This document shows, piece after piece, positions 57,603-64,000 of a DNA stretch of 64,000 nt. Location of the stretch: contig CAVYTA010000005.1 in the NCBI GenBank assembly GCA_963771355.1, positions 896,001 through 960,000 on the forward strand. Direction: 5' to 3'. How positions within the stretch are numbered: the first letter of the stretch is position 1; the number at the start of each line of letters is the position of its first letter. The notes beneath the pieces are model-generated. The model searched no databases, had not been told where the DNA came from, and was given only the letters and a program-made list of their open reading frames with translations. Source of the stretch: an uncultured Candidatus Rokubacteria bacterium. GTDB lineage: Bacteria; Methylomirabilota; Methylomirabilia; Rokubacteriales; CSP1-6. Both the position numbers and the translations under genes were made by a program.

Positions 57603-59026
57603 GGCGCACCAAGATCGTCTGCACCATCGGACCGGCTTCCTCGAGCCGCGAGATGCTGGACCGGCTCGTGGCCGCCGGGATGGACGTGGCCCGGCTCAAC
57701 TTCTCGCACGGCACCCACGAGGAGCACGCGGAGGTGATGCGGTCCATCCGCGAGGGCGAGGCCACCTGGGGCCACCCCGTCACCATCGTGCAGGACCTCC
57801 AGGGCCCGAAGGTGCGGCTCGGCCGCTTCGTGGGCGGGCAGGCGCTCCTGCTCAACGGCGAGACCTTCACGCTGTCGGCCAAGAACATCATGGGTACCGA
57901 CACGCGGGCCACGCTGTCGCATCCCGAGTTCCTCCCCGTGCTCAAGAAGGGCGATCAGGTGTGGATGGACGACGGGATGATCCAGCTCGTGGTGGAGTCG
58001 GCGTCCGCGGAGGAGGCGGTGTGCCGGGTGACGGCGGGTGGGGTGGTGTCCGATCACAAGGGCATCTCGCTACCGCGCATTCCGGTGCCGGTGGCCTCGC
58101 TCACCGAGAAGGACCGCGAGGACCTGCGCTTCGGCATCGCCCAGGGCGTGGACTACGTGGCGGTGTCCTTCGTGCGCAACGTCGCCGACATCCAGGAGGT
58201 GCGGAAGTTCATCCACGCCCAGGGGGCGGATCTTCCCATCATCGCCAAGCTCGAGCGCGCCGAGGTGATGGGCAACCTGCCCGGCATCCTCCCGCTGGTG
58301 GACGCGGTGATGGTGGCGCGCGGCGACCTCGGCGTGGAGGTACCGCTGGAGGACGTGCCGGTGATCCAGAAGGAGATCATCCGGCAGGCGCGGCTGGCCA
58401 AGGTGCCGGTGATCGTCGCCACCCAGATGCTCGAGTCCATGGTGCGCCACATCCGCCCCACGCGCGCCGAGGTGACCGACGTGGCCACCGCCATCTTCGA
58501 CGGTGCCGACGCCACCATGCTCTCGGCGGAGACGGCGACCGGGCGTTTCCCCGCGGAGACGGTGCGGGTGATGGCGCGCATCGCGGAGCGCGCGGAACAG
58601 GCGTTGTCCAAGAACCCCGCGGACCAGCGCCGCGGGGAGCGCGGGGAGGCCTACGGCTTCCCGGAGGCCACCTCGCAGGCGGCCTGCCACGCCGCGCGGG
58701 TGCTGCACGCCAAGGCCATCGTGGCCTTCACCCAGTCGGGGTTCACCGCGCGTCTCATCTCGGAGGAGCGGCCGGACGTGCCCATCCTCGCGCTGACGCC
58801 CTTCCCCGAGGTGCAGCGGCGGCTCGGCCTCTACTGGGGAGTCGTCTCGCGCCTGATCCGGAAGGTGGAGACCACCGACGAGATGGTCGACGAGATCGAG
58901 TCCACCCTGCTGTCCGACGGGACCGTGCGCAACAACGACGTGCTCGTCATCATCTCGGGCGCGCCGATGTGGGTGACCGGGACCACCAATCTGCTGAAGT
59001 TCCACCGCGTCGGCGAGCGCCGCTAG
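57599..59026 (+). CDS. pyk: Pyruvate kinase
   Basis: [43 protein letters not shown]. Confidence 0.97.
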
Positions 59027-59151
59027 TGCCGGGCCAATTGACTTCGCCATACTTCGTTCTCGGTCGGCGCCGCCCCTCGACGTACAACCACGTACGCCTC
59101 GGGCCGTCGCCTCCCTCGGGCCTCGTCTGGCTCGCCACTTGGCCCGGCACT
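59025..59151. repeat. Repeat family B, second copy (~127-bp imperfect palindrome)
   Basis: Terminal IR AGTGCCGGGCCAA/TTGGCCCGGCACT; core CTTCGTT...CTCGACGTAC-N6-GTACGCCTCG...GCCTCG. Confidence 0.8.
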
Positions 59152-59168
59152 GTTCCAGGGAGACCGTG

Positions 59169-59957
59169 ATGGCCTACCAGACGCTCGGATACGAGGTGAA
59201 GGACGCGATCGCCACCCTCACCCTCAACCGTCCCGACGCCTACAACGCGCTCAACCTCACCCTCGGGCGGGATCTCTTCCACGCCACGCTGGAGGCGGAC
59301 GAGGATCCCGGGGTCCGGTGCATCGTGGTGACGGGGGCGGGGAAGGCCTTCTGCGCGGGCGGCGACGTCAAGGACTTCGCGGAGGCGGGCGACCGCGTGG
59401 GGGTGGTGATCAAGGAGCTGACGACCTATCTCCACGGCGCGGTGTCGCGCCTGGCGCGGACCGCCAAGCCGGTGATCATGGGCATCAATGGCATCGCCGC
59501 CGGCGGCGGGATGAGCTTCGCCCTCGCCGGTGATCTCGTGGTGGCGGCGGAGTCGGCGAAGTTCACCATGGCGTATTCTCGGATTGCGGCCTCCCCCGAC
59601 GGCTCCTCGTCGTATTTCCTGCCGCGCCTGATCGGGCTGCGCCGGGCGCTGGAGCTGCACTACACCAACCGTGTCCTCACCGCCCGCGAGGCACTGGACT
59701 GGGGGCTGGTGAATCGCGTGCATCCGGACGCGGAGTTTCCGGGCGCCCTGGCCGGGCTGGCCCGCGAGCTGGCGGCGGGGCCCACCCTGGCCTTCGGCCG
59801 CGCCAAGCAGCTCTTCCACCAGTCCACGCAGGAAAGCCTGGAGACCCAGATGGAGCTCGAGGCGCAGGCCATCGCCGCCAGCGGCCATACCGCGGACTTC
59901 CAGGCGGGCGTGAAAGCCTTCGCCGCCAAGCAGCCGGTCAGCTTCCGGGGACGCTGA
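59169..59957 (+). CDS. Enoyl-CoA hydratase/isomerase (PaaG-like)
   Basis: LNRPDAYNAL, AFCAGGDV, GIAAGGG, SPDGSSSYFLPRLIG. Confidence 0.9.
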   Translation: MAYQTLGYEVKDAIATLTLNRPDAYNALNLTLGRDLFHATLEADEDPGVRCIVVTGAGKAFCAGGDVKDFAEAGDRVGVVIKELTTYLHGAVSRLARTAKPVIMGINGIAAGGGMSFALAGDLVVAAESAKFTMAYSRIAASPDGSSSYFLPRLIGLRRALELHYTNRVLTAREALDWGLVNRVHPDAEFPGALAGLARELAAGPTLAFGRAKQLFHQSTQESLETQMELEAQAIAASGHTADFQAGVKAFAAKQPVSFRGR

Positions 59958-59961
59958 CCGC

Positions 59962-60555
59962 TTGGCCTCGGGAAGCTGGGAAGACGTGGCGCGCGGCTAT
60001 CGGCGCTACCGGCAGCTGCCGGTGTGGGCGGGGCAGAAGGCGATGCCGAATAATCAAGGACTTCTGTCGCGTGAGCTGATCCGGGACATGAAGGCGCGCG
60101 GCGCCAAGGCGGCCGCGGACGTGGAGGCCGCGCTGGCGCGCCTGGTCGGTGAGGCCGCGCTACCAGAGACCCCCCGCACGCTCGAGCAGCGTCACGTGGA
60201 CGGCCTCGCCGCGAAGCGGCGGCTGGGACGGGAGACGCTCGAGGCCCTCTGGGAGGCCATCGTGTTCGACCGGGGCGGCTACACCTGCGCCTACTGCGGC
60301 CGGACGCCGGAGAGCGTCTCCCACGCGGAGGGCCGGCGGCGCGGGCTGCTCCTGGTGGTGGACCACTTCAGCGCCCGCTCGACGCTGGCCGAGCGGCACC
60401 GCCTCGACAATAGCGTCACGTCCTGCGCGTCCTGCCGTGCGGTGAAGGCCGACCTGCCGCGCGATCCCTTCCTCGACGAGCTGCGCTCGCAGGCGAGCGC
60501 GGTGGCGGCGCGGCACGCGCGCTCGGAAGGCGCGCGCGGGGAGGCCGCCGGCTGA
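59962..60555 (+). CDS. HNH-like Zn-finger nuclease domain protein
   Basis: DRGGYTCAYCG...VVDH...DNSVTSCASC; the final Asn/His is replaced by Arg. Confidence 0.7.
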   Translation: MASGSWEDVARGYRRYRQLPVWAGQKAMPNNQGLLSRELIRDMKARGAKAAADVEAALARLVGEAALPETPRTLEQRHVDGLAAKRRLGRETLEALWEAIVFDRGGYTCAYCGRTPESVSHAEGRRRGLLLVVDHFSARSTLAERHRLDNSVTSCASCRAVKADLPRDPFLDELRSQASAVAARHARSEGARGEAAG

Positions 60556-61924
60556 TGAAGCGCGGCCGCGCGGCGCAGGCCGCGCTCCTGCTCTCCCCCT
60601 TCCTGATTTCCCTCCTGCTGTTCCCGCCCGCCCCGTTTTCGGCTGGTCGCTCTCCGTCGGCTCCACCACCGGCAATCGTGTGGCCGCCGGGCGCGGCAGC
60701 TTTCCGCGCTTTCACGCGTTCGGCATCGCGACCGAGGTGCCGATGCGCTGGGTGGTCCTGCTGGACCCGACGCGGCTCGCCACCGTGGATCGCGAGGGCA
60801 CGATGTGGATCCTCGACGCCTCCCGCAGCGGACTCGGCGTGGCGGCGCGCTACGGCGAGGTGGTGAACCCGGAGGCGCCGCCCGCGGTGGTGGCGCTGGA
60901 CGAAGACCAGGTGGGCCTGGCCCTGATCGGCCGCGACGGCCGCCTCATGCTCTGGAGCGATGAGGCCCTGCGGAGCTACGACGTGGGGGCGCCGCTCTCT
61001 CAGCTCGCCGTTCCCACCCCGGTGCGGCTGACCGGCCAGCACTGGGATGATCTGCTCGCGGTGGCGGCGGACGGCGCGGTGGTGCTCATCGGCGGCCTGC
61101 CCTCGGGGCCCCGCATCGTGTCGCGGGTCGAGGTCCGGGCCTTGCCGGACGCGCGCATCACGCTGGCCGACCTCGACGGCGACGGCATGCCGGAGGCGGT
61201 GATCCTGACCGACCCCACGGAGCGGTACTCGCAGGGCTTGCTGGGGGACCGCGCCGAGGCGGCGAGCGTCACCGTGATCGGCGTCACGCCCTTCGGCCTG
61301 TCGCTGCGGGGGCGGCACGCGCTGCCCACCGCCGTCTTCGAGGATCTCGTTCCCGTGCTCGCGCCGCTCGGTCCGGGGAGCCGCCCCGCGGTGCTGATGG
61401 CGCGGAGCACGGCCCAGCAGGGAACGGTGGTCAGCGCGCTGGGCTGGCGGGACGGGGCACTGGTGGCCCTGGCCGAGAGTCCGCCCGCGGACCAGGCCGA
61501 TCGCTGGATCCACGTGGTGGGGGTGGCCGATCTGTCGCGTGACGGCTCACCCGAGGTGGTGGCGGTGCGCACTCCCCATCTGGGCGGCGTGCTGACCGCC
61601 TATCGCCGCAAGGGGGCCGCGCTCAACGTGGCCGCCCAGGTGGTCGGCTTCGCCTCCCACACCGCGGGCTCGCGCAACGCGGACCAGGCCCTCATCGCGG
61701 ACCTCGACGGGAACGGACGGCTGGAGGTGATCGTGTCCCGCCCGTCGCGGGAGACCCTGGTGGGGCTGGAGCGCAACGGCTCCCGCTTCGTGGAGCGGTG
61801 GAACATCCACCTCCGCGCCGCCATCGAGTCCAACCTGCTCGCCGCCGACGTGGACGGCGACGGGCTGCTCGATCTGGTGGTCGCGGATCGGCGGGCGCTC
61901 TACGTGTTCTTCAGCGTAAGATAG
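60555..61924 (+). CDS. Secreted FG-GAP/VCBS repeat protein; frameshift at ~60620-60670
   Basis: Signal peptide in ORF 60555; ADLDGDG, ADLSRDG, ADLDGNG and ADVDGDG repeats in ORF 60680..61924. Confidence 0.75.
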
Positions 61925-61929
61925 CGGGC

Positions 61930-62670
61930 ATGCGCCCCCGACTCTTCTATCGCCCCGGCTGAAGCAGCTGCGCCAAGACGAAGGAGCTCCTCACGTCTTG
62001 GGGGGTCGAGTTCGACCCGGTGAACGTCGAAGGAAATCCCGCCGGCCTGGAGGAGCTGCATGCGGCCGGCGTGCCGCTCGTTCCCGCGGTGGTGGTGGAT
62101 GGGCGCGCCGTGCACGGCTGGAATCCGCCCGGCTATGCCGCGCTGCTCGGCGTCGAGTATCACCCGGCGGTGCAGCTCTCGCCCCGTACGCTGGCCACGC
62201 GCCTCGACCACATCCTCGCCTGCACCGGGCGGCTGGTAGCGGCGTTGCCGGCCACCGCGCTCGCCTACAAGCCGCCGGAGCGCGACCGCGACCTGCGCAA
62301 TCTCGGCTTCCACGTGTTCCGCCTGGCGCTGGCCTTCGCCGACGGCATGGACCGGGGCGAGTTCCCCGAAGGTTGGCTGCAGGAAAAGGCGCCCGCCGAC
62401 CTGGTCGACGGACCGTCCATCGCGCGCTACGGCGCGCTGGTGCGCGGCCGCCTGGCCGGCTGGTTCGAGGGGGCGGGGGATGGGGAGTTTGCCCGCACCA
62501 TCGCGGTCTACTACGGGCCGCAGTCCGGGCATGATCTCCTCGAGCGCACGACCTGGCATGCCGCCCAGCATCTCCGCCAGCTCCATGTGATGACGGAGGG
62601 GCTGGGCCTGCGACCGCCGGACCCGCTGCCCGACTTCACCGGCCTGCCCTTGCCCGCGAGTCTCTGGTGA
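61930..62670 (+). CDS. Putative selenoprotein: glutaredoxin-like (UxxC) domain fused to a DinB-like domain
   Basis: ATG 61930 reads MRPRLFYRPG-TGA(61960)-SSCAKTKELLTSWGVEFDPVNV in frame with ORF 62020..62670; LVPAV cis-Pro motif; DinB-type LGFHVF and WHAAQHLRQL. Confidence 0.85.
61973..62001 (+). promoter_or_regulatory. Candidate bacterial SECIS element
   Basis: CCAAGACG-AAGGAGCTCCTCA-CGTCTTGG stem-loop starting 10 nt after the in-frame TGA. Confidence 0.6.
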
Positions 62671-62686
62671 GGGGAGGAGGCGTCCG

Positions 62687-63802
62687 GTGAGCCTGATCTC
62701 GAAGTCGGAGTTCGTGGGGCTGGATGGCGTGACGCATCTCTGCACCGGCGGCGAGGCGCCGTGGCTCCGGTCCCACGACGCCGCTTGTGCGCGCTTCGGT
62801 GAGCTCAAGAGCGCGGGCATGGCCGGGCGCGAGGCGATCTTCGGCGTCTACGGGCGTGCCAAGTCGCGCGTGGCGCGCCGGCTCGGCGTGTCCCCCGAGC
62901 GGGTCGCCTTCCTCGCCCATTCCTCCGAGGGCCTGAACCAGGCGGTGCGGGCGGTGGACTGGCGTCGGGGCGACAATGCCGTGTTCGCGGACCTCGAGTA
63001 TCCCTCGCTGGTCTTTCCCGTCGCGGGGCTGGCCGACCGCGGGGTCGAGCCGCGCGTGGTGCGGACGCTGGGCCATCACCTCTCCATGGATGCCCTCGCC
63101 GCCGCGGTGGATGCGCGCACGCGCCTGGTGCTGGTGAGCCAGGTGAGCTATCTCACCGGGCAGCGCCTCGACCTCGCCCGCTGCGCCGAGCTGGCGCGGC
63201 GACGCGGCGCCTGGCTCGCGGTGGACGCGACCCATGCCCTGGGGGTGGTGCCGGTGCCCGGCGACGTCTGCGACTTCGTGGTGTCGTCCTGCTACAAGTG
63301 GCTGCTCGCCACCCACGGGGTGGGCATCTTCGCCTACAGCGCGGAGCGGGTGGGGGAGCTCGCGCCCGCCACCATCGGCTGGCATAGCGTGGAGGGTCGC
63401 GGAGGCTTCGAGGATCCCCTGGCCATGCCGCTCCGTCGGACGGCGGCGCGGCTCGAGGCGGGCAACCCGTCGCTGCTGCCGCTGTTCGTGCTCGACAATG
63501 CGCTCGAGCGCACCGAGGGACTCGACCTCGGCACGGTCGAGCGTCATGCCCAGGCGCTGGGCGCGCGCCTCATCGAGGGGCTCACCGCGCGCGGGCGCAA
63601 GGTGATCACCCCCGAGGCGCCCGCCGAGCGGGCGGGGAATGTCTGTTTCCTCGCCGACGACGCGCGGGGGTTGGCCGACCGCCTCGCCACGCGAAAGGTG
63701 CTCGTCTGGGGGGGCGACGGCCGCATCCGCGTCTCCGCCCACCTCTACAACGATGGGGAGGACGTGGCCGCCTTCTTCGCGGCGATGGACGCGGTCGGCT
63801 AG
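62687..63802 (+). CDS. Aminotransferase class V PLP enzyme (cysteine desulfurase/selenocysteine lyase/C-S lyase-like)
   Basis: SSEGLN, LEYPS, VDATHALG, SCYKWLL (PLP Lys), RVSAHLYN. Confidence 0.88.
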   Translation: MSLISKSEFVGLDGVTHLCTGGEAPWLRSHDAACARFGELKSAGMAGREAIFGVYGRAKSRVARRLGVSPERVAFLAHSSEGLNQAVRAVDWRRGDNAVFADLEYPSLVFPVAGLADRGVEPRVVRTLGHHLSMDALAAAVDARTRLVLVSQVSYLTGQRLDLARCAELARRRGAWLAVDATHALGVVPVPGDVCDFVVSSCYKWLLATHGVGIFAYSAERVGELAPATIGWHSVEGRGGFEDPLAMPLRRTAARLEAGNPSLLPLFVLDNALERTEGLDLGTVERHAQALGARLIEGLTARGRKVITPEAPAERAGNVCFLADDARGLADRLATRKVLVWGGDGRIRVSAHLYNDGEDVAAFFAAMDAVG

Positions 63803-63806
63803 ATCC

Positions 63807-64000
63807 TTACGGCAGGAGATCCGCCACGCGGATCCGCGCAGCGGGCGCGGCGACCGGCGCGACGGTCTCGTCGCGTCCGAGGGAATGGACTTCCTGGTAA
63901 CGCCATCCCGCCGCCGTCTCGGGCGTCGCCACGGGCTCGCGGTGCACCTCCAGGGTTCCCTCGACCAGGTTGACGATCCAGTAATCCCGAATGCCCGCCC
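63807..64000 (-). CDS. Uma2 family (PD-(D/E)XK) endonuclease, 3' part
   Basis: Hand translation ...AGIRDYWIVNLVEGTLEVHREP...IRVADLLP*. Confidence 0.85.
   Translation of the reverse strand, partial: AGIRDYWIVNLVEGTLEVHREPVATPETAAGWRYQEVHSLGRDETVAPVAAPAARIRVADLLP

Follow-up and report, generated by a model that had tools for sequence, protein, structure and literature searches.

A candidate selenoprotein joining a USSC redoxin domain to a DinB-type helical bundle in an uncultured Rokubacteria bacterium

In this study, we examined a gene near the end of a 64,000-nucleotide stretch of DNA (hereafter the window; positions 896,001 to 960,000 of the forward strand of contig CAVYTA010000005.1, assembly GCA_963771355.1) from an uncultured Candidatus Rokubacteria bacterium. 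Read through an in-frame UGA, the gene very probably encodes a 246-residue selenoprotein in which a redoxin domain with the motif USSC, where U is selenocysteine (Sec), is followed by a DinB-type bundle with a predicted metal site of three histidines. Sequence and comparison point to this through an open frame, a conserved UGA, Cys in homologues, a covarying hairpin, Sec machinery in the genome and a conserved histidine triad, and the two-domain fold is predicted from a structural model.

The sequence-only reading of this DNA had taken the frame upstream, through one TGA at 61960, to an ATG at 61930, and all of its coordinates check: translation of the window gives a 246-codon frame from ATG 61930 to TGA 62670 with a single internal TGA and the N-terminus MRPRLFYRPG-U-SSCAKTKE. 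A table-11 scan starts the short open reading frame (ORF) at GTG 62020, as had been stated, and the suspicion that gene callers truncate the gene was borne out by a database search, in which 116 of the best 120 of 1440 matches examined span only 65-94% of the protein. The four full-length proteins among those 120 carry CSSC (three) or SSSS (one). Among representatives at 50% identity, for which the best 150 of 2609 were examined, 50 are full-length, and 48 of these hold CxxC at the Sec position, with one SxxG and one SxxS. Rows beginning just past the Sec position make up 58 of the 154 aligned; this is the expected mark of a cut gene, and some of the rows may be other fragments. The claim that the TGA stands at a glutaredoxin CxxC position is upheld by alignment and by a Pfam glutaredoxin match.

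Related loci were collected as one genome per species, giving 80 loci at 46-89% identity from Rokubacteria/Methylomirabilota and a few records titled Binatia, Acidobacteria, Thermodesulfobacteriota and SAR324 (a 29-locus set from the same collection was not recounted). TGA stands at this codon in 76 of the 80 loci and TGC in one, and three do not cover the codon; three TGA loci with short frames were dropped from later counts, leaving 73 full-length TGA genes. Two more distant relatives, at 31% and 26% identity, hold TGA at the equivalent place (U-F-T-C and U-T-N-C), and the codons flanking the UGA are conserved on both sides down to 26% protein identity. A metagenome search with 35 Cys proteins returned 80 loci, 73 with TGC or TGT and seven with TGA. 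The TGA is no assembly error: in bridging contigs from three public DNA runs no letter other than TGA occurs at 61960-61962, this check being of contigs and not raw reads, and one run (record 23) being possibly the source of this same DNA. Contigs from one RNA run cover 62042-62382 and 62365-62940; none of this strain bridges the TGA, and transcription is not thereby established.

A hairpin resembling a bacterial Sec insertion sequence (SECIS) follows the UGA. The 8-bp stem CCAAGACG (61973-61980), which pairs with 61994-62001 and starts 10 nt past the TGA, is present as the sequence-only reading described it. Folding energy alone is weak evidence for this element, being unremarkable at the 70% GC content of the window (z = -0.42, -2.02, -0.38 and -2.71 in four folding windows); the hairpin goes beyond chance because it is conserved and covaries. 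Its loop of 4-5 nt begins 22 nt past the UGA with G second, and its energy is -11.4 to -17.3 kcal/mol, so that loop, stem, G position, spacing and energy all fall within the bacterial SECIS model as given in the Fig. 2 legend of PMC13188914 (loop 3-9 nt, stem 4-16 bp, G at loop position 1-2, 16-37 nt from the UGA, minimum free energy <= -7.5). In a codon test set of 50 genes, left when the 73 full-length TGA genes were dereplicated at 85%, every gene has ACG at codon 17 and TCN at codon 23, and codon 22 ends in CG in 50/50 whether its residue is Ser, Ala or Thr. G is the third base of both codon 17 and codon 22 in 50/50; outside codons 11-30, none of 142 four-fold sites is invariant. Across 48 distinct sequences, 92.2% of cells pair in an 8-pair stem with a 5-nt loop, compared with 38-60% in slid controls. 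There are 24 double-sided changes (A-U to C-G in 10 sequences, A-U/G-C in 14), with one of the two covarying pairs unpaired in 18 of the 48 sequences, and RNAalifold recovers seven of the eight stem pairs unaided.

The hairpin tracks the TGA codon and is lost with TGY. Six to eight of the eight pairs form in 76/76 TGA genes, compared with means of 3.0 in 55 TGC genes and 2.4 in 18 TGT genes, and four to seven form in the seven TGA genes nested among Cys forms. Related sequences can beat a shuffle control without structure, and we therefore relied more on this contrast between TGA and Cys codons, in which clade and codon are partly confounded. A lone recent TGC copy within the Sec clade retains most of the stem, and the relatives at 31% and 26% identity share the core ACGAAAGAG..CTTTCGT.

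The genome, which is 99.8% complete, contains a tRNA-Sec(UCA) gene (C7:111447-111544) adjoined by selA and selB, and selD on C4; in a profile search selA scored 555 bits, selB 367 and selD 266, all above curated cut-offs. Among related genomes, selB is above cut-off in 50 of 61. TGA also ends more frames in this genome than any other stop (1722 of 2934 long coding-like frames), and the gene codes Trp as TGG. The dominant use of TGA as a stop therefore points to site-specific recoding and not to a changed code, and code 4 (TGA as Trp) was ruled out on these two grounds. The sequence-only reading had raised the possibilities that the genome lacks Sec machinery, that reads show TGC or TGT, and that homologues lack Cys; instead, selA, selB, selC and selD were all found, public assemblies (as contigs) keep the TGA, and CxxC predominates among the full-length representatives. 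We infer that the UGA is almost certainly decoded as Sec, with SelB acting on the hairpin and tRNA-Sec at the UGA.

The Pfam glutaredoxin match and the predicted fold of both halves bear out the proposed glutaredoxin-DinB architecture. Pfam Glutaredoxin (PF00462) matches residues 5-60 at 45.5 bits (cut-off 22.9), and an AlphaFold2 model from a 32-row alignment has a predicted local distance difference test score (pLDDT) of 92.6 and a predicted template modelling score (pTM) of 0.88. The N-domain of the model (residues 1-75) resembles 3zij (Z 13.6), NrdH 1h75 and cGrx1 7c10 (both Z 11.8), and the conserved Pro opposite the motif, Pro52, is invariant in the alignments. In the predicted model, residues 80-232 match 6iz2 (DR0053) with Z 16.8 and a root-mean-square deviation of 2.1 over 143 aligned residues (Foldseek TMt 0.85); other matches of this DinB half are YfiT (1rxq, Z 14.2), 8f5v (mycothiol S-transferase) and 2nsg (maleylpyruvate isomerase), both at Z 13.2, and BstA (5wk0, Z 10.3). 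His128, His210 and His214 are invariant in Sec alignments A1 and A4, and in 50 distant full-length relatives the triad reads HHH in 47 and QHH in three. These residues form a predicted metal site, their closeness in three dimensions being deduced from their position in the bundle.

The DinB motifs [YF][YWF]G and WHxxQHxRQ are intact in 73/73 Sec genes, 73/73 Cys-clade genes and 7/7 Sec genes of the second set. By eye, [YF][YWF]G is eroded in nine of ten close relatives that have lost Sec (L080, P0012, P0056, P0065, P0094) or the whole redoxin domain (L205-L209), although these relatives are not independent of one another and may include decaying genes. This contrast suggests that the two halves serve one function. 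The relatives L205-L209 (from genomes G081, G083, G096, G153 and G116) are DinB-only derivatives, two of the five without the helix-4 histidines, and they sit at the same syntenic spot, after an FG-GAP or enoyl-CoA hydratase gene. Coordinates of all features are collected in Table 1.

Table 1. Features of the glutaredoxin-like-DinB gene and its surroundings, in positions of the window
Feature	Position	Strand	Basis or remark
Full gene, glutaredoxin-like(USSC)-DinB fusion, 246 aa	61930..62670	+	ATG 61930, terminal TGA 62668-62670
In-frame UGA, probable Sec11, position 1 of U-S-S-C	61960..61962	+	TGA conservation and Cys in relatives
Cys14, predicted resolving cysteine	61969..61971	+	Invariant, alignments A4 and A5
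SECIS-like hairpin	61973..62001	+	Conserved core pairs 61977-61984 / 61990-61997; loop from 61985
NrdH/YruB-like redoxin domain, about residues 5-75	61942..62154	+	Pfam PF00462 and fold; invariant Pro52, G63-W64-x-P66
DinB/YfiT four-helix bundle, about residues 80-232	62167..62625	+	Predicted metal site His128, His210, His214
Short 216-aa ORF given by table-11 caller, GTG start	62020..62670	+	ORF scan; similar database entries
TAAGAT, unproven candidate for a leaderless -10 box	61917..61922	+	Overlaps end of upstream gene
FG-GAP repeat protein	60680-61924		Neighbour gene
Small HNH-like protein, weak matches only	59962-60555		Neighbour gene
Class V aminotransferase	62687-63802		Neighbour gene

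The function of the protein can be approached through the thiols available to its host. In this genome, gshB, gshA (two families, PF04107 and PF04262), bshC and mshC were not found, and gshB was found in none of 61 related genomes; an mshC-like match proved to be cysteine-tRNA ligase (CysRS). The gene search thus gave no sign of a host that makes glutathione, as hosts of classical glutathione-dependent glutaredoxins do. The thioredoxin reductase gene trxB is above cut-off, and NrdH-redoxins are recycled by thioredoxin reductase. Because the genome has trxB and no glutathione genes were seen, thioredoxin-type recycling is the inferred route: U11 and C14 would probably cycle via a selenenylsulfide that is recycled by thioredoxin reductase or a thioredoxin-like protein, by analogy with those redoxins. 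The redoxin is more likely NrdH-like and thioredoxin-recycled than a glutathione enzyme.

Our best guess, which is a tentative one, is that both domains take part in one reaction and that the tethered selenol acts at the DinB metal site, the selenium serving as the protein's own nucleophile or reductant towards a small molecule bound there. The selenol would replace the role of mycothiol or bacillithiol in DinB-fold transferases and isomerases, attacking an electrophile, with subsequent release via C14. If true, a tethered Sec redoxin would explain how electrophiles are handled in Rokubacteria in which no genes for glutathione, mycothiol or bacillithiol were seen. The sequence-only reading had proposed a Sec-dependent redox or thiol-transferase fusion; the Sec and the fusion are supported, and the thiol-transferase part is still conjecture. 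Since synthesis genes for these three thiols were not seen in the genome, a classical role as a glutathione, mycothiol or bacillithiol S-transferase is less likely than that reading implied.

Several observations weigh against this interpretation or parts of it. Sec incorporation, though very probable, is deduced from comparison and genome content, and in the tethered-selenol proposal U11 would have to face the His site. The hairpin loop here is AGCU, in which C follows G, and so departs from the optional G(G/U) pattern; most bacterial SECIS loops have G or U after the G, and U follows it in 23 of 50 relatives. This gene copy also has mismatches at two of the eight core pairs, and three of the 76 TGA loci give shorter frames, at least partly through contig ends. 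No selB match was obtained in 11 of 61 relatives, three of which are at least 90% complete with low contamination. Pfam DinB_2 (PF12867) matches residues 101-218 at 23.4 bits (E 8.5e-5), just under its cut-off of 24.8; most close homologues are annotated DinB_2. The genome has egtD and an EgtB/OvoA-like gene, and a free thiol such as ergothioneine may be available. There is no conserved operon partner to indicate a substrate, and neighbours vary between clades. Many Cys-clade hosts belong to the Pseudomonadota, which usually produce glutathione, and the family therefore extends beyond cells that lack this thiol.

Other explanations keep the selenoprotein and give it a different task. It could be a conventional thiol S-transferase in which a free thiol of low molecular weight (ergothioneine, cysteine, CoA, or, in the proteobacterial Cys forms, glutathione) is activated at the DinB site, the redoxin only keeping that thiol or its mixed disulfides reduced. 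The likeness of the fold to 8f5v and BstA agrees with this, as do egtD, the EgtB/OvoA-like gene and the Cys forms in Pseudomonadota; we consider it unlikely, given a host in which synthesis genes for glutathione, mycothiol and bacillithiol were not found and top structural matches that are DinB proteins without an assigned activity, tied with or above the transferases. We are quite doubtful that the redoxin is instead a general protein-disulfide reductase or redox switch regulating a metal-dependent DinB hydrolase or isomerase of a catabolic pathway. Relatives do adjoin extradiol dioxygenases, a muconate cycloisomerase-like gene and a CoA transferase, others an amidase and an isochorismatase-family gene, one is fused to MmgE/PrpD, and DinB-only derivatives exist; these catabolic neighbours, however, fail to recur across clades, and the DinB-only derivatives are mostly motif-eroded and partly lack the helix-4 histidines. 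A role in handling metals or metalloids (As, Hg, Se, Cu), in which the selenol/thiol pair reduces or binds an ion that the His site receives, appears improbable: the UxxC pair with a His triad and the weak profile likeness of Cys forms to Spx/ArsC-like families would suit it, but the neighbours scanned show no recurring operon for resistance or transport. That the UGA ends translation, reflects a sequencing error, or encodes Trp or Cys, leaving a pseudogene or a 216-residue product, is highly improbable despite the short form given by gene callers, as TGA is the genome's main stop and Trp is TGG, the TGA persists between conserved codons to 26% identity, a hairpin lost with TGY follows it, and public assemblies agree.

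The preferred reading, a Sec redoxin acting with a DinB metal site, can be set beside known systems. Sec glutaredoxin (Grx, PF00462, UxxC) is listed as experimentally verified (PMC13188914, Table 1), and the protein shares with it and with 7c10 a thioredoxin fold, Sec at the first UxxC position and an in-frame UGA with a 3' SECIS. The known Sec glutaredoxins are small and stand-alone, whereas here there is a 165-residue DinB domain, the motif is USSC, and no glutathione synthesis genes were seen in the host. The 7c10 structure, 'Dithiol cGrx1', which we take to be Grx1 of Clostridium/Alkaliphilus oremlandii, is the top PDB match for both clades (E 2.9e-11 and 2.2e-16). Uxx-star proteins (NF041212, NF041211, NF047338; HUGP/GUXX-star NF045501) likewise have a Grx-like domain with G-U near the N-terminus and match at E 1.9e-6 to 8.8e-3, but the scores are far under cut-off (28 vs 66, 22 vs 97, 16 vs 100, 20 vs 325) and leave the DinB domain uncovered; six Cys forms also fall under the Uxx-star cut-offs. 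NrdH/YruB redoxins (TIGR02194, TIGR02196; 1h75, 3zij) are the best family matches of the N-domain (Z 11.8-13.6), which nevertheless lies below their cut-off, and those families are Cys-only and stand-alone. The N-domain of EgtB, OvoA and SenA is of the DinB type and binds metal through a His triad (Z 10-11); its fusion partner is an FGE-sulfatase domain and not a redoxin, SenA using selenosugar and not Sec, whereas the present protein ends at 246 residues with no such domain. DinB/YfiT proteins (6iz2, 1rxq, 5wk0, 8f5v, 2nsg) share the four-helix bundle and the histidine triad, the latter described, in the part of PMC10693628 consulted, as a shared feature of the DinB superfamily. Identity to the top structural matches is only 12-22%, no solved chain spans both domains, no selenoprotein member appears in the PMC13188914 catalogue, and the thiol co-substrates of the mycothiol and bacillithiol S-transferases are not encoded here.

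The novelty lies in the fusion and not in the recoding, Sec at a glutaredoxin UxxC being well known. A DinB domain is in none of the 119 families of Table 1 of PMC13188914 (2026), whose text has 'DinB' 0 times; a term search found 'DinB' absent from the deep-Sep text and four supplements (PMC12013277), and it is absent from the text of BSepDB (PMC13326102), whose family table S2 lay outside the search and where such genes could be filed as glutaredoxins. NCBIfam (June 2026) has no model above cut-off for this protein or for six Cys forms. Our literature search found no relevant paper on a selenoprotein glutaredoxin-DinB or any other DinB selenoprotein, on Rokubacteria selenoproteins or on cGrx1, with Haft and Tolstoy 2025 and Deng et al. 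2026 outside the comparison; the latter, as cited in a review, predicted 63 selenoprotein genes in one Methylomirabilota metagenome-assembled genome as well as novel candidates, and a prior listing of the architecture there is possible. It is strongly supported that the recoded gene is real and that glutaredoxin-DinB is a selenoprotein architecture unlisted in the catalogue compared. The architecture is common in an abundant soil lineage in which public annotation shortens the gene to 'DinB family protein', and it brings selenium chemistry into the DinB superfamily, which is poorly understood. Cultured Caballeronia, Variovorax, Roseomonas and Rhizobium carry natural Cys forms, with which the function could be studied in the absence of Sec machinery.

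Of 151 genomes in the phylum, 93 gave a match in a profile search, with matches concentrated in two families of the order (79/93 and 11/11 genomes) and none in two other families of the phylum (0/18 and 0/12); these tallies include three genomes flagged unpublished (G016, G030, G136), on which no conclusion hangs. Cys-clade relatives occur on 14 plasmid records from Rhizobium, Caballeronia, Roseomonas, Variovorax and Burkholderia, and at the four such loci viewed the genes are intact and annotated. In one Cys form, P0190 (721 aa), an MmgE/PrpD-like domain precedes the glutaredoxin-DinB unit in the same chain. A quick, unrooted tree of 78 proteins (130 before dereplication at 75%), built from only the residues after the U/C codon, with SH-aLRT support and no bootstrap and with the window's own protein left out, shows five changes between Sec and Cys, at least two of them forced by well-supported branches. 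The hairpin core common to scattered Sec branches would agree with Sec being ancestral and lost more than once. It is possible, though we think it less likely than not, that this is the first selenoprotein family of the DinB superfamily, that its Sec redoxin replaces a free thiol co-substrate in what would be a new catalytic design, and that Sec was perhaps ancestral and lost several times in aerobic Proteobacteria.

Upstream of the gene, TAAGAT lies 7 nt 5' of the ATG, as the sequence-only reading noted. As a ribosome-binding site it was rejected: it is no Shine-Dalgarno sequence, and it lies across the final codons and stop of the gene before it. TAnnnT occurs 5-8 nt before the start in seven of 75 related loci, five of the seven being the closest relatives, and genome-wide TAnnnT-ATG peaks at 6-7 nt with a modest excess (131 and 162, compared with 83 and 109 for an ATC control). 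The five closest relatives have TAnnnT 6-7 nt upstream of the ATG, a possible though unproven sign of leaderless transcription; there is no sigma-70 promoter match within 59000-64000.

The FG-GAP, HNH-like and class V aminotransferase neighbours each occur in only 5-7 of the 80 related loci. Operon context was rejected as a clue to substrate: the upstream uvrA/(pyruvate kinase)/enoyl-CoA hydratase block, a relative of which is present in 56 of 80 loci (53 at 66-95% identity), is lineage synteny, and in the Cys clade no recurring partner emerged, the highest count being 8 of 80 loci once a cluster of antisense artefacts is set aside. In 40 of the 80 related loci, the opposite strand carries a stand-alone FGE-sulfatase gene downstream or nearby (for example L045:7569-8213 (-) and C5:960451-961098 (-)). 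DinB and FGE-sulfatase are the domain pair of EgtB/SenA, and the orientation argues against an operon; a split EgtB/SenA was not adopted, the gene being on the opposite strand and not beside the distant Sec genes scanned.

Elsewhere in the genome, DinB_2 has 22 matches, 21 above cut-off, though no glutathione, mycothiol or bacillithiol genes were seen. A cluster at C6:2318000-2325000 (L202) holds egtD and an EgtB/OvoA-like gene that scores under all three cut-offs, along with a fusion resembling thioredoxin reductase, a betaine-type ABC transporter and a peroxiredoxin-like gene that contains a UGA. A loose genome scan gave 99 candidates from 622 TGA sites, and by eye about 20 further redox genes have an in-frame TGA; from their motifs, these are presumably peroxiredoxin-, AhpD/CMD-, DsbA-, UGSC- and SelW-like. 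Examples are C5:965963+, C5:239367-, C6:1429282+, C6:636803-, C5:576125+ and C6:2546613-, and one TGA redox gene 6 kb past the end of the window is above the TIGR02187 cut-off when read through.

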